Source of the DNA: Pseudomonas phage 41C
DNA length: 37,859 nt
Sequence record: PV880424.1
Direction: 5' to 3' (one strand)
The notes beneath the pieces are model-generated. The model was not told the DNA's origin. It worked only from the letters and a program-made list of their open reading frames with translations, and did no database searches. Position numbers and translations under genes: made by a program. Positions 6,998 through 12,765 of this stretch are shown one piece after another; within the stretch, counting starts at the first letter, position 1, and every line of letters starts with the position of its first letter.

Positions 6998-8707
6998 GTG
7001 AAGAAAATCATCGGTGATACGGCTTGTCCGGGTTGCCGAGCTAAAGGTGGGGATAAAACAGGAAATCACCTCATCTTGTTCGTTGATACAGAAAAGGGTA
7101 CTCGGTTCGGAAGTTGTAACCGTTGTGGTCACTACGAAGTCCTCGAAGAGGGTTTCAAGGTGCCAGAGCGTAAGGAGAAATCCGAGGAGGATATCATCCA
7201 TGAAGTCAACGAAGTACTTGAGTATCCAATTAAAGCCCTCGATACTCGAAAGATCAGCAAATCAATCGCTGAACGGTACGGGGTACGTGTTGGTCTATCA
7301 CAAGAAAATGGTGAGGATGTTATCGAGCATTACTATCCACGCACTCGCGATGGGGAGTACCGAGCGTTTAACGTCCGAATCCTAGAGCCCAAGGCCTTTT
7401 ACTACCGTGGGAGCCCCAAGGGCGGTGTAGACCCATTCGGGTATAATACCCTTCGGCATAAGGATATGGGCCACCTGCGGTTAGTCATCTGCGAAGATGA
7501 ACTGTCGGCTATGTCTGTGGCCCAGATCATGGAGTCGAAACTCCCGGAGAAGTGGAAGCATCTTCGTCAGGCATCCATTAGCTGGTCCTCGGGTGTTGGT
7601 TCTGCTGGACGGGACATTGCGTTCCTTAAGGAGTCTGGTGTCCTTGAGCGGTTCAACGAGGTCATCTATTGCCACGATGCGGACGACGAAGGCCGTAAGT
7701 CAGTAGAAAAGGTACGTGCCCTGTACCCCGAGTGTAAGTTTGTCGAGCTTCCTCTGAAGGACGCTAATGACATGCTCATGCGTAATCGGGGGGATGAGGT
7801 TTACCAGATGATCCGATTCGGCAGCAAGGTCAAGTCTCCGGACTGTTCCGTTACTGTCGATGAGGTATACGCTGAGGCTCTGGAACCCCCCAAGTGGGGC
7901 AAGAGTTACCCGTGGGAAGGTTTAACCAACCTAACCTATGGTCAGCGGGATGGTGAAATCATCGGGGTAGGCGGTGGTACTGGTATCGGTAAGACCCTGT
8001 TGGCCCACGAGATTGCTGCCTGGAATTGCATTGAGCACGGGGAGAACGTAGGGACATTCCTGTTGGAAGAGCAGGTAGCCATGACACTTAAGAATATCGC
8101 GGGGAAGGTTGCCAACGTGCCCTTCCACCGACCGGATATCGAGTGGGATGAGCAAGCCTTTAAAGATGCTGCGGGTAAACTCCGTGGCAAGCTCTTCATG
8201 TGGAAGAATAAGGGTCAGAACGATTGGGATCATATCAAGGAGTGTATTCGCTTCTGGGCAGTAGCCATGGATGTGAAGACTATCCTCCTGGATAACATGA
8301 CCGCCATGACCAACCACCTGAGTCCTTCCGAAATGAACACGGAGATCGCTCGTATCTGTACAGAGCTCGCAGGGATGGCCGACGAGCTAGGGCTGCGAAT
8401 CTTCATCTTCTCCCACCTTAACCCACCCAAGGGTAACCGTACCCACGAGGAGGGCGCTGAAGTAAAGGAAAGCCAGTTCACTGGTTCCCGAGCTATGCAG
8501 CGGTGGTGTCAGCTTATGATCGGCTTCGAGCGGAACAAGCAGGCTGACGGGGAAGAGAAGCACGAGAGTCGAATCCGTGTAATCAAGGACAGGAACTACG
8601 GTAACACTGGCCTAGTGTTCACCAAGTATAACCCTGAGACGGGTCGATTGGTTGAGCGTGAGGGCAGTTACGACGAGGTACCTGCTGACGATGACACCCC
8701 AATTTGA
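6998..8707 (+). CDS. DNA primase/helicase (T7 gp4-like)
   Basis: GTG start. N-terminal Cys4 zinc ribbon (CPGCRAKGG...CNRCGHYEV). TOPRIM-like middle region. Walker A GVGGGTGIGKT, then DnaB-family helicase motifs. Domain order matches T7 gp4. Confidence 0.9.
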   Translation: MKKIIGDTACPGCRAKGGDKTGNHLILFVDTEKGTRFGSCNRCGHYEVLEEGFKVPERKEKSEEDIIHEVNEVLEYPIKALDTRKISKSIAERYGVRVGLSQENGEDVIEHYYPRTRDGEYRAFNVRILEPKAFYYRGSPKGGVDPFGYNTLRHKDMGHLRLVICEDELSAMSVAQIMESKLPEKWKHLRQASISWSSGVGSAGRDIAFLKESGVLERFNEVIYCHDADDEGRKSVEKVRALYPECKFVELPLKDANDMLMRNRGDEVYQMIRFGSKVKSPDCSVTVDEVYAEALEPPKWGKSYPWEGLTNLTYGQRDGEIIGVGGGTGIGKTLLAHEIAAWNCIEHGENVGTFLLEEQVAMTLKNIAGKVANVPFHRPDIEWDEQAFKDAAGKLRGKLFMWKNKGQNDWDHIKECIRFWAVAMDVKTILLDNMTAMTNHLSPSEMNTEIARICTELAGMADELGLRIFIFSHLNPPKGNRTHEEGAEVKESQFTGSRAMQRWCQLMIGFERNKQADGEEKHESRIRVIKDRNYGNTGLVFTKYNPETGRLVEREGSYDEVPADDDTPI

Positions 8708-9200
8708 TTACGTGATCTATGACCTTGAGGGGGATGGACTCTTCAACGAGGTCACAAGGTTATGGTGCGCTGTTGCAGTAGACATTCCAACTGGGATAGT
8801 CCGGGGATTCCGGCCCGAGGAAATGGATGTGTTCTACCGCATCATCGCCCATGCAAAGTTCGTGGTCGGGCATAACATCCTAGACTACGACAACCGGGTC
8901 CTTGAGAAACTTCATGGGATCATCATCCCACCGGATCGAAGCTACGATACCTTGGTTGCATCGAGGTTGACTTGGCCAGACCGACCCCAGGGTCATTCCC
9001 TGGGTGCCTGGGGTAGATTCCTGAAGTGTCACAAGGGTGATTTCAACGACTTCTCCAAGTTCTCCGAAGAAATGTTTGAGTATTGCCTTCAGGATGGAGT
9101 GGTCAGTCACGCACTGTTCAACTACCTCCTCCGGGTACTCGGCATGACTTGGCAAGAGCTTGTTGAATGGAGGACTGTAGATTGGCTAAAAAGCGAGTGA
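8691..9200 (+). CDS. DNA polymerase part I (3'-5' exonuclease domain of a T7-like family A polymerase)
   Basis: MTPQFDYVIYDLEGDGL aligns to T7 gp5 MIVSDIEANAL (Exo I D-x-E). HSLGAWGRFL aligns to HALEAWGYRLG. EEMFEYCLQDGVV aligns to Exo III YNVQDVV. The ORF stops at 9200 after ...TVDWLKSE. First in-frame ATG is at 8691. Confidence 0.8.
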   Translation: MTPQFDYVIYDLEGDGLFNEVTRLWCAVAVDIPTGIVRGFRPEEMDVFYRIIAHAKFVVGHNILDYDNRVLEKLHGIIIPPDRSYDTLVASRLTWPDRPQGHSLGAWGRFLKCHKGDFNDFSKFSEEMFEYCLQDGVVSHALFNYLLRVLGMTWQELVEWRTVDWLKSE

Positions 9201-10925: not shown

Positions 10926-11127
10926 TAACATGAGCAAGATCAAAAGTGTTCTCATGGAGCGGGTAGATGACTTCCTGCTCAAGCAAGTTGCTGTAGCGTT
11001 CTTGGAGCAGCAATGGCGACTGGACCGAAGCGGAACCGTGGACTACCTCTCCTACCTGGAGGGTATCTCCGACGAGGCCGTGGAGGTAGTCGTAGAGAAT
11101 CTGGCGGAGCGTCTTAAGGGGGACTAA
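10888..11127 (+). CDS. hypothetical protein
   Basis: 79-aa ORF ending immediately before the GTG start of polymerase part II. Confidence 0.35.
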   Translation: MSVGVPTSFSTGDNMSKIKSVLMERVDDFLLKQVAVAFLEQQWRLDRSGTVDYLSYLEGISDEAVEVVVENLAERLKGD

Positions 11128-12765
11128 GTGGATTGGAGAAAGTCACTGTTCGTTGAGCACAAGGTAGCTGATATCATCAGCCGCCAGAGTAAACGTGGAG
11201 TCCACTTCAAGACTCAGCGGGCCAAGTGGCTGATCCATGTGCTTACCGAACGAATCCTCAAGATTGACCTTGAGGCCGTCCCTCAGATGCCGATGATGAT
11301 CGTAAAGGCTGGGGCCTTCAGCAAGCCATTCCTAAAGAGTGGTAAGCCTAACCAAAGGCTCCAGTCCTTATGGCAACGACTTGGGCACTTCGAGGTATCT
11401 GGACCATTCACTGCAATCGAGTACATTCCCTTCGACCTTGGCAAGACTGCTAAGTTCAAGGATTGGATGCTGGATCAGGGATGGATTCCTGACCAATGGA
11501 ACATCAAGGATATTACTGTCGGCACTGATGGCAAGAAGCTACGTGGATCTGACCTTAATGAATCCTTGAACAAGTACATTGAAGACCTCCGACAGAGTAA
11601 ATCTGGACGACTCCGAATGAAGCTCCAGGGGATCATCCCTGGGAAGACTACGATCGGAGAGGTCAAGAGAAAGCTAGAAAGGCAACGAAAGGTATTGACG
11701 ACTCCGAAGATGACGGAAGAGTCGATGGATACCGTCCAGGGAGACCTGGGAAAGCTGGTGATGCAGCGAATGGTTTGGGCCCACCGGCGGTCCCTCTTGC
11801 AGGGGCTTGTCGATCAGGTGAGGCCCGATGGACGCCTAGAGGGGAGTGCTAACCCCTGTGCAACACCTACGGGCCGAATGAGGCACCGTGTAGTAGTTAA
11901 TATCCCCGCTGCTCGTTCTCCCTTTGGACCAGAAATCCGAGGGTTGTTCCAGGGGACACCTGATGCCGGTGAATGGAAATGGACTGTCCTCCGCCGAGAC
12001 ATTGGAGAGAACGAAAGGGTTAGGCCCTTCACTAACATTGTGGAGGAACTCAAGAAAGGTAAGTGGAAGCCTGTAGGAAAGCACAAGGTATACGTCCCAG
12101 CGAATCAAATGGTCTTCGTGGGCTATGACGGTGCTGGACTAGAGCTTCGGATGCTTGCATCCTACATCAATAACCCAGAGTACACCAAAGAGGTGGTCGA
12201 GGGTGATGTACACACTGCCAACCAGATAGCCGCAGGTCTCCCAACCCGTGACGATGCTAAGACGTTCATCTACGCCTTCATCTACGGTGCTGGGGATGCC
12301 AAGATCGGGACTATTATTGGGGGCACAAGGGCAGATGGGGCTAGGCTCCGGGCCCAGTTCCTTGAGGCTAACCCTGACCTTGCTGCATTGATCGAGAGGG
12401 TTAAGCAGGAAGCCGAGAGAGGTTATCTCGAAGGGCTAGACGGACGGAAGCTAACCATGCGACGTTCTGAGTCTGGCGACGTGATGATCCATAAGGCATT
12501 GAACACCCTCCTACAAGCGGCAGGTGCAATTGTCATGAAGTGGGCCATGGTGCTCCTAGATGAACGGGTCCGGAGGTTGAACCTTCGGGCTTGGAAAGTC
12601 CTGGATATCCATGACGAAGGTCAGTGGGAATGCCACCCAGAGGATCTCATTGCGCTACGTGGACAGATGGAAATCTGTGTCCGGGATGCTGGAGTGCTCC
12701 TTGGGGTTAACTGTCCTTTGGCTAGTGATTCCATCGCTGGTCGCTCGTGGTATGACACACACTGA
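11128..12765 (+). CDS. DNA polymerase part II (thumb/palm/fingers of a T7-like family A polymerase)
   Basis: GTG start preceded by RBS AGGGGGA. N-terminus MDWRKSLFVEHK aligns to T7 gp5 FWSESLEAVDIEH. KTFIYAFIYGAGDAKIG is motif B (T7 KTFIYGFLYGAG). LDIHDEGQWEC is motif C (T7 VHDEIQ). Confidence 0.85.
   Translation: MDWRKSLFVEHKVADIISRQSKRGVHFKTQRAKWLIHVLTERILKIDLEAVPQMPMMIVKAGAFSKPFLKSGKPNQRLQSLWQRLGHFEVSGPFTAIEYIPFDLGKTAKFKDWMLDQGWIPDQWNIKDITVGTDGKKLRGSDLNESLNKYIEDLRQSKSGRLRMKLQGIIPGKTTIGEVKRKLERQRKVLTTPKMTEESMDTVQGDLGKLVMQRMVWAHRRSLLQGLVDQVRPDGRLEGSANPCATPTGRMRHRVVVNIPAARSPFGPEIRGLFQGTPDAGEWKWTVLRRDIGENERVRPFTNIVEELKKGKWKPVGKHKVYVPANQMVFVGYDGAGLELRMLASYINNPEYTKEVVEGDVHTANQIAAGLPTRDDAKTFIYAFIYGAGDAKIGTIIGGTRADGARLRAQFLEANPDLAALIERVKQEAERGYLEGLDGRKLTMRRSESGDVMIHKALNTLLQAAGAIVMKWAMVLLDERVRRLNLRAWKVLDIHDEGQWECHPEDLIALRGQMEICVRDAGVLLGVNCPLASDSIAGRSWYDTH

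Follow-up and report, generated by a model that had tools for sequence, protein, structure and literature searches.

Why are the proofreading and polymerising domains of one T7-like DNA polymerase encoded apart in Pseudomonas phage 41C? In the window analysed here (the whole stretch of 37,859 nucleotides of sequence record PV880424.1, with positions counted from its first letter), an exonuclease gene and a polymerase gene are separated by ~1.9 kb of DNA (1,927-1,928 nucleotides in the genus of this phage), to which we refer as the island. An original prediction made from the sequence attributed the gap to a homing endonuclease that had carried an insertion into the polymerase gene, or alternatively to a large intron with cargo genes. 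Our analysis strongly favours another answer: the locus corresponds to the replication module typical of LUZ24-like phages (Bruynoghevirus), in which a family A polymerase of the T7 gp5 type is encoded by two stable, separately translated genes that were split in the distant past.

The division of the enzyme itself is clear. DNA polymerase part I (8691-9200, + strand) is a stand-alone 3'-5' proofreading exonuclease subunit of 169 amino acids with intact DEDDy motifs, which ends in ...LVEWRTVDWLKSE-TGA. It was aligned by phmmer to residues 2-186 of T7 gp5, its Exo I/II/III residues D11, E13, N62, D67, Y131, and D135 are invariant in the alignment, and it matches PHROG 403, 'DNA polymerase exonuclease subunit', at 2e-32. 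Part II (11128-12765, + strand) is the family A polymerase subunit, 545 amino acids encoded without an intron from a GTG start; its opening codons read GTG-GAT-TGG-AGA-AAG-TCA (DWRKS after the start) and its Shine-Dalgarno sequence, AAGGGGGA, lies at 11116-11123, four bases 5' of the GTG. This subunit corresponds to T7 gp5 from residue ~207-213 to 700 (E 1.8e-40) and to Pfam DNA_pol_A (PF00476; 5e-28), and its palm and fingers motifs A, B, and C (DGAGLELR, RDDAKTFIYAFIYGAG, and IHDE) are aligned to those of T7 gp5. Given these two alignment ranges, the break falls into the linker between the exonuclease and polymerase domains, as the original prediction had it. The predicted ends of both open reading frames (ORFs) and the independent translation signals of part II were likewise confirmed: two separate polypeptides are encoded, each ORF having its own stop and start signals, and the same holds in relatives. 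Both halves are under purifying selection, with ratios of non-synonymous to synonymous substitution rates (dN/dS) of ~0.1.

This two-gene arrangement is already known. All LUZ24-group phages were described as encoding the polymerase and the proofreading exonuclease in separate genes, as in phiEco32, when the genome of phage tf was published (PMC3517423, 2012); in the genome table of UFV-P2, ten ORFs separate 'DNA polymerase part I' from 'part II' (PMC3890496); and GenBank records of relatives use these names, 'DNA polymerase exonuclease subunit', and similar ones. The statement in the original prediction that related Pseudomonas phages have split polymerases was therefore correct. Dozens of Pseudomonas aeruginosa genomes of the genus share 95-99% identity with the region: 93 records matched, 81 of them with at least 80% of the query covered, and the two-gene layout is common to at least 81 sequenced phages. 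With LUZ24, PaP3, and tf, whose genes are named 'part I' and 'part II', the window has an identical architecture in common, from the exonuclease behind the primase/helicase gene through the island to the polymerase gene.

The age of the split can be read from more distant relatives, for which we used 80 IMG/VR loci with an alignment to the exonuclease subunit. About 70 relatives at 33-43% identity possess a single contiguous ORF of ~580 amino acids comprising exonuclease and polymerase. Besides the genus of the window, split genes occur in phages of the EPa87 type (88% exonuclease identity, gap of 1,665 nucleotides), in tf-like phages (61%, ~2,090 nucleotides), in JB8-like phages (39%, ~1,450 nucleotides), and in 77-kb phages of Kuravirus size (33%, ~9 kb, a figure taken from one contig that is listed both as L055 and as L100). 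The contents of the island differ among these relatives and the gene order is the same; the sequence of primase/helicase gene (in the window at 6998-8707, + strand, with the exonuclease ATG inside its overlapping 3' end) and exonuclease gene is kept in every split lineage. In a neighbour-joining tree of the polymerase domain (405 columns), all split polymerases that are associated with a small HNH-like gene, described below, fall into a single clade (bootstrap support of 100%). Its sister group includes the contiguous enzyme of L080 and also L058, whose polymerase is split but not accompanied by the HNH-like gene. L080 carries a 1,109-amino-acid exonuclease-polymerase ORF with large extra segments (6950-10279) and is the nearest contiguous relative of the split polymerases; the gap of L058 (3561-5859) holds only a 99-amino-acid ORF of no assigned function.

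The original prediction had proposed to define the target site from relatives that lack the insertion. This comparison yielded no close relative with an uninterrupted gene: no such exonuclease-polymerase allele was found in any relative closer than ~25-33% identity. One ancient split that was inherited vertically is the simplest reading, and the split is common to several phage genera and families.

The Kuravirus (phiEco32-like) phages illustrate how far such a module can drift. They share a stand-alone exonuclease behind the helicase gene, a polymerase that is 36-41% identical and falls into the same fully supported clade, and the same HNH-like gene 1-1.3 kb upstream of the polymerase gene. 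In contrast to the window, ~9 kb containing nucleotide-metabolism genes separate their exonuclease from their polymerase gene, and some of their polymerase genes contain a further interruption. These extra interruptions of ~600-750 nucleotides occur at two positions (L100, 9019-9627; L101, 8956-9564; L102, 8679-9428) and could be introns or endonuclease insertions. The Kuravirus gene directly 3' of the exonuclease was considered as the polymerase and turned out to be a nucleotidyltransferase. Separately, the N-terminal 200 amino acids of the polymerase subunit match, at ~26% identity, genes of 147-kb phAPEC8-like coliphages (H146-H159 in the phage database) that are annotated as 'DNA polymerase, part I' or '3'-5' exonuclease domain'; these phages may represent another lineage with a split or rearranged family A polymerase.

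Taken as a sequence of events, the break in the linker would have arisen once, in a remote ancestor common to the tf/Vicosavirus and JB8-like phages, the 90-97-kb phages of Aeromonas, Proteus, and Salmonella, and the Kuravirus coliphages. Because the break lies in a linker, the gap might tolerate turnover of small genes, and it would since have served as a slot in which small lineage-specific genes are gained and lost (in the window a 77-amino-acid cassette, ORFs of 63, 53, and 65 amino acids, a membrane protein, and a promoter-driven DUF7020 gene), with one basic HNH-like gene retained in every lineage under very strong purifying selection. The 19-kDa DEDDy exonuclease and the 61-kDa polymerase are expected to associate non-covalently into a proofreading replicase. 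In Escherichia coli Pol III, too, the polymerase (alpha) and the 3'-5' exonuclease (epsilon) are separate polypeptides that need to associate; that polymerase, however, belongs to family C rather than family A, and the parts encoded in the window are clearly halves of one ancestral T7-type protein.

Several points weigh against this account. Since the tree of the exonuclease domain is poorly resolved (154 columns, low support), the case for a single origin is built mainly on the polymerase domain, on synteny, and on the HNH-like gene that the split lineages have in common. The break of L058, in the sister group, is also at this linker, and yet no HNH-like gene accompanies it; either splits recur at the linker, or L080 has re-fused. 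A short repeat at the two edges of the gap, DW(L/R)KS/GATTGG, is statistically unusual and resembles a target-site duplication, and it may therefore be the footprint of an insertion.

The contents of the island argue for piecemeal accretion. Just 3' of the stop codon of the HNH-like gene lies a GC-rich hairpin, GGGGCC-TTCG-GGCCCC (9486-9501, + strand), which has no U-tract and is kept in the EPa87 clade. It is followed by an ORF for a coiled-coil-like protein of 77 amino acids (9514-9747, + strand) that is precisely missing from EPa87-type phages: a clean cassette indel between two P. aeruginosa clades (9512-9727 of the window compared with L005), extending from just after the hairpin to just before the ribosome-binding site of the next gene. 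ORFs of 63 (9728-9919, + strand) and 53 amino acids (9909-10070, + strand) are genus-specific, and a membrane protein of 95 amino acids (10052-10339, + strand), annotated as 'holin' in databases, shows 41-48% identity to tf-like phages. Behind it, at 10342-10370 (+ strand), lies a perfect sigma-70 promoter: TTGACA and TATAAT with a 17-nucleotide spacer and an upstream TG, that is, an extended -10 element, scoring 12 of 12. Both hexamers are kept in the 88%-identical EPa87 clade despite a diverged spacer, a phylogenetic footprint that argues for independent transcription within the island. The promoter precedes a fast-evolving DUF7020 protein of 169 amino acids (10416-10925, + strand; 35-41% identity within the genus), which bears out the predicted promoter-driven gene. 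The last ORF (65 amino acids, 10930-11127, + strand) carries the Shine-Dalgarno sequence of the polymerase gene in its final codons.

The small ORFs of the island are 60-78% identical to their EPa87 counterparts. In comparison with tf-like phages, only the membrane protein and the HNH-like ORF (9167/9182-9478) are recognisable, and all island genes other than the HNH-like one are lineage-specific. For this reason, the 1.9 kb do not represent one inserted unit; the gap looks like a long-lived slot for gene accretion rather than one mobile island. The original gene list stands with respect to the HNH-like ORF, the membrane protein, and the 169-amino-acid gene. Its total of six ORFs does not, given that we found seven (103 or 98, 77, 63, 53, 95, 169, and 65 amino acids).

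The gene next to the break behaves differently from its neighbours. It encodes a small, very basic protein with an HNH-like (H-N-N) signature (9182-9478, + strand; 98 amino acids from a TTG at 9182, or 103 from an ATG at 9167). The TTG is probably the true start, since a conserved GGAGGA (9169-9174), the Shine-Dalgarno sequence of the gene, followed by this TTG yields a product beginning MAKKR..., as in other lineages. Relative to EPa87, the frame contains 19 synonymous changes and a single non-synonymous one. An overlapping frame (9213-9482) is deposited as a membrane protein of 89 amino acids in several genomes and in PHROG 11010, for example as tf_29 and UFV-P2 ORF33; we rejected it as coding, the same comparison giving no synonymous and 20 non-synonymous changes. 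The HNH-like ORF has thus been annotated in the wrong frame in several genomes, and the correct frame is more conserved than the polymerase. We also discarded a programmed -1 frameshift that would join the exonuclease to the HNH-like ORF at CTA-AAA-AGC, because the A-run is not conserved (EPa87 has CTA-AAC).

In every split lineage examined, the HNH-like gene sits between the exonuclease and polymerase genes; it is the sole island gene common to all of them and abuts the exonuclease gene in most. It also encodes the most conserved protein of the module, with 76-85% identity in lineages in which the exonuclease reaches 30-62% and the polymerase 46-78%. The respective values for HNH-like protein, exonuclease, and polymerase are 82-85%, 61%, and 78% in the tf and Vicosavirus types and 76%, 30%, and 46% in L093; they are 68%, 34%, and 48% in L095 and 52-61%, 33%, and 36-41% in phages of Kuravirus size. 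Synonymous sites of the gene are saturated between genera (proportion of synonymous differences, pS, 0.68-0.87), which rules out recent horizontal transfer between genera as the source of this similarity and indicates that the conservation reflects constraint. Its dN/dS is 0.014-0.10 and its dN is 3-4 times below that of the polymerase; neither these ratios nor the saturation data revealed the relaxed or independent evolution of a selfish element. Within the genus, its dS (0.35) is below that of its neighbours (0.67-2.1), and some local exchange of the gene is therefore possible.

The distribution of the gene follows that of the split enzyme. We found it in 251 phage records, with taxon counts nearly equal to those of the split polymerase clade; it is fixed in the ~250 phage genomes of this clade, with no sporadic presence or absence among close relatives, and is absent near the polymerase at the ~70 loci with a contiguous polymerase. 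Judged by these patterns, the HNH-like gene appears to be a functional core gene and not a selfish passenger, a behaviour opposite to that expected of a sporadic, decaying homing endonuclease.

The HNH character of the product seems real but weak. The core contains a conserved DH...N(L)...N motif without zinc-binding cysteines. Pfam HNH matched 22 of 30 members below threshold (best E 0.0012), PHROG HNH families match at 7e-5, and a profile search of 1.84 billion representatives returned only 94 matches, mostly proteins of 60-150 amino acids, yet extended to true HNH_3 proteins (E 3e-8). AlphaFold2 gave a model of low confidence (predicted local distance difference test score, pLDDT, of 61), and its top Foldseek matches were HNH nucleases at E above 0.2; a sequence profile search of the PDB with the family gave no meaningful match. 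The 98 amino acids include no recognisable DNA-recognition module, and no Rosetta-stone fusions of the domain to a polymerase or exonuclease were found; two long proteins carry it (P0165 and P0185), with N-terminal regions of no assigned function. Of the free-standing HNH endonuclease originally placed at 9167-9478, the gene at the break is hence confirmed, whereas the label rests on the PHROG and HNH_3 profile links, being sub-threshold in Pfam, and the start is probably the TTG at 9182.

This gene is central to the rival explanation that survives best, namely that a contiguous polymerase gene was invaded by a free-standing HNH homing endonuclease, which left genes in pieces and, as the footprint of its insertion, the DW(L/R)KS/GATTGG repeat. 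Precedent exists in Aeromonas phage Aeh1, where mobE splits nrdA, and T4 genes 39 and 60 are a comparable case: as here, the break in an essential enzyme falls on a domain boundary, the gap contains a gene of a nuclease family, and reassembly of the halves is presumed. Also in favour is that no other island gene occurs in every split lineage, and that the HNH-like gene adjoins the exonuclease gene in most of them. The window differs from these precedents in that its nuclease-like gene is fixed, ancient, and constrained, no intact allele occurs in close relatives, and the gap contains many unrelated genes. JB8 has another ORF between the exonuclease and the HNH-like gene, and the wide separation in Kuravirus-size phages speaks against a recent insertion.

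The repeat can be taken as support for such an insertion. GAT TGG CTA AAA AGC (DWLKS; 9180-9194, + strand) near the end of the exonuclease gene faces DWRKS at 11131-11145 (+ strand) in the polymerase gene; GAT-TGG is codon-aligned in both ORFs, and four of the five residues match. A four-of-five match between a tail and a head of 10 amino acids each is expected in ~0.06-0.15% of trials (P ~0.001), and P is ~0.03 at the DNA level. The nearest contiguous homologue, L080, reads ...EWRNWNWKEAFWLEQ... at this place; in tblastn, the exonuclease tail was aligned through NWKEA of L080 and the polymerase head from the same five residues, and deletion between the two copies would yield EWRTVDWRKSLFVEH, which is collinear with L080 without a gap. 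The original claim that both edges align to one segment of T7 gp5 thus holds for L080 instead: part I can be aligned to T7 gp5 no further than residue 186, and its tail is alignable only to L080-type proteins, not detectably to T7.

The duplication is real, as predicted, but its exonuclease-side copy is not conserved outside the P. aeruginosa clade. Polymerase heads are kept in all lineages ([DG]W..[SA]L..E), whereas exonuclease tails beyond a conserved EW are not: TVDWLKSE in the window corresponds to TGSWLNV in EPa87, RLKVG in tf, THEQSSEL and ANGQKEEL in the further Pseudomonas phages L090 and L092, respectively, ...LYWKM in Kuravirus, and unrelated tails in the JB8 types. The repeat is confined to the P. 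aeruginosa Bruynogheviruses, is weaker in the EPa87 type, and is absent in tf, L090, L092, JB8, and Kuravirus; it is thus not shared by the lineages that inherited the split. The codons of the exonuclease tail also double as the Shine-Dalgarno sequence, the TTG start, and the Lys-rich first codons of the HNH-like gene. Given that the tails are unconserved and that these codons serve the start of a constrained gene, the repeat is clade-specific and probably fortuitous or secondary. Together with the vertical inheritance of an HNH-like gene that evolves more slowly than the polymerase, and with the lineage-specific nature of the other island genes, this makes an insertion by a homing endonuclease unlikely, and a recent one is not supported by the data. 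In a remote ancestor, an HNH gene might have brought about the original split.

Far less probable is a large, cargo-carrying group I or group II intron that would be spliced out to restore one polymerase mRNA. The GATTGG repeat would allow an in-frame junction, the term 'exons' is loosely applied to the polymerase parts in a genome paper (PMC3890496), and a genuine group I intron is hosted elsewhere in the polymerase gene of this family. However, the Rfam search for a group I core that had been suggested as a check returned three chance-level matches and no intron family (neither RF00028 nor group II) in 8000-13500 at E up to 10. As a positive control, the same scan of the relative WS1160 (L002) detected RF00028 at E 1.5e-9 where an endonuclease VII ORF interrupts part II; the corresponding region of L002 is 5179-5816. 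Further arguments against an intron are the conserved internal promoter, the seven ORFs with their own start signals, and the lineage-dependent content and length of the island (1.45 kb to ~9 kb). Splicing of the 669-nucleotide LUZ24 intron has been shown in vivo, and the long-read study of full-length complementary DNA concerned reported only this intron and a 34-nucleotide event, with no splicing across the island between exonuclease and polymerase (PMC10914365).

This group I intron lies in the motif B region of the polymerase gene in LUZ24, WS1160, and TL-type genomes. The window differs from them in lacking both the intron and its endonuclease VII gene, the empty site lying near codon 382 of part II (~12271), and the presence of the intron is therefore polymorphic within the genus. 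Introns of the LUZ24 or SPO1 I-HmuI type resemble the locus in their target gene family and in the association with an HNH or endonuclease VII nuclease, and differ from the island, which has no ribozyme core, contains a promoter, and is unspliced according to the LUZ24 data.

That the split stems from faulty assembly or sequencing, or from a recent disruption that made the gene a pseudogene, can practically be dismissed: we found no support for either, the same stop, start, and island recur in at least 81 independently sequenced genomes, and purifying selection acts on both halves.

Returning to the ancient split as the preferred reading, the division of the polymerase itself adds little to what was known, and the conserved HNH-like gene is a modest side lead and the only part that merits further work. 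We tentatively suggest that the 98-amino-acid protein could be an obligatory, so far unrecognised partner of the split replicase lineage. In the most interesting version, it is a candidate for the site-specific nickase that makes the strand-specific TACT/RTGMC nicks of LUZ24- and tf-group genomes; another possibility is that it serves the two-piece polymerase as a DNA-binding accessory or processivity factor. TACTRTGMC is the nick-associated motif of tf and of a cluster of 61 phages including LUZ24-type phages (PMC3517423; PMC11780129), and neither paper names the nickase. The window contains five such sites, all on the + strand (1961, 6821, 13233, 17329, and 22012), compared with 1.2 expected, and none of 100 shuffles reached five. 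Enrichment of the motif on the + strand extends to all Pseudomonas lineages with at least 68% identity in the HNH-like protein, and no enrichment was found in the Kuravirus-size loci; at related Pseudomonas phage loci, too, the motif occurs on the + strand only. Conservation of the HNH-like protein parallels that of the 9-bp motif across phages with almost no DNA similarity, a correlation only, which is compatible with a role as the nickase. If so, the protein should introduce a strand-specific nick after TACT on DNA with TACTATGAC or TACTGTGAC. It would then provide a concrete candidate for a nickase or accessory factor in a group of therapeutic Pseudomonas phages with nicked genomes.

Two features outside the module can be added. 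Directly 3' of the polymerase stop codon, at 12773-12806 (+ strand), a hairpin that resembles a terminator (GGGGG...CCCCC, then T's) overlaps a second sigma-70 promoter, which is nearly perfect (TTGACT, 17-nucleotide spacer, TATAAT) and lies ahead of a gene for a gp2.5-like single-stranded DNA-binding protein. At 36758-37086 (- strand), the window carries a cluster of four tRNA genes: Pro-TGG, Tyr-GTA, Asp-GTC, and Asn-GTT.

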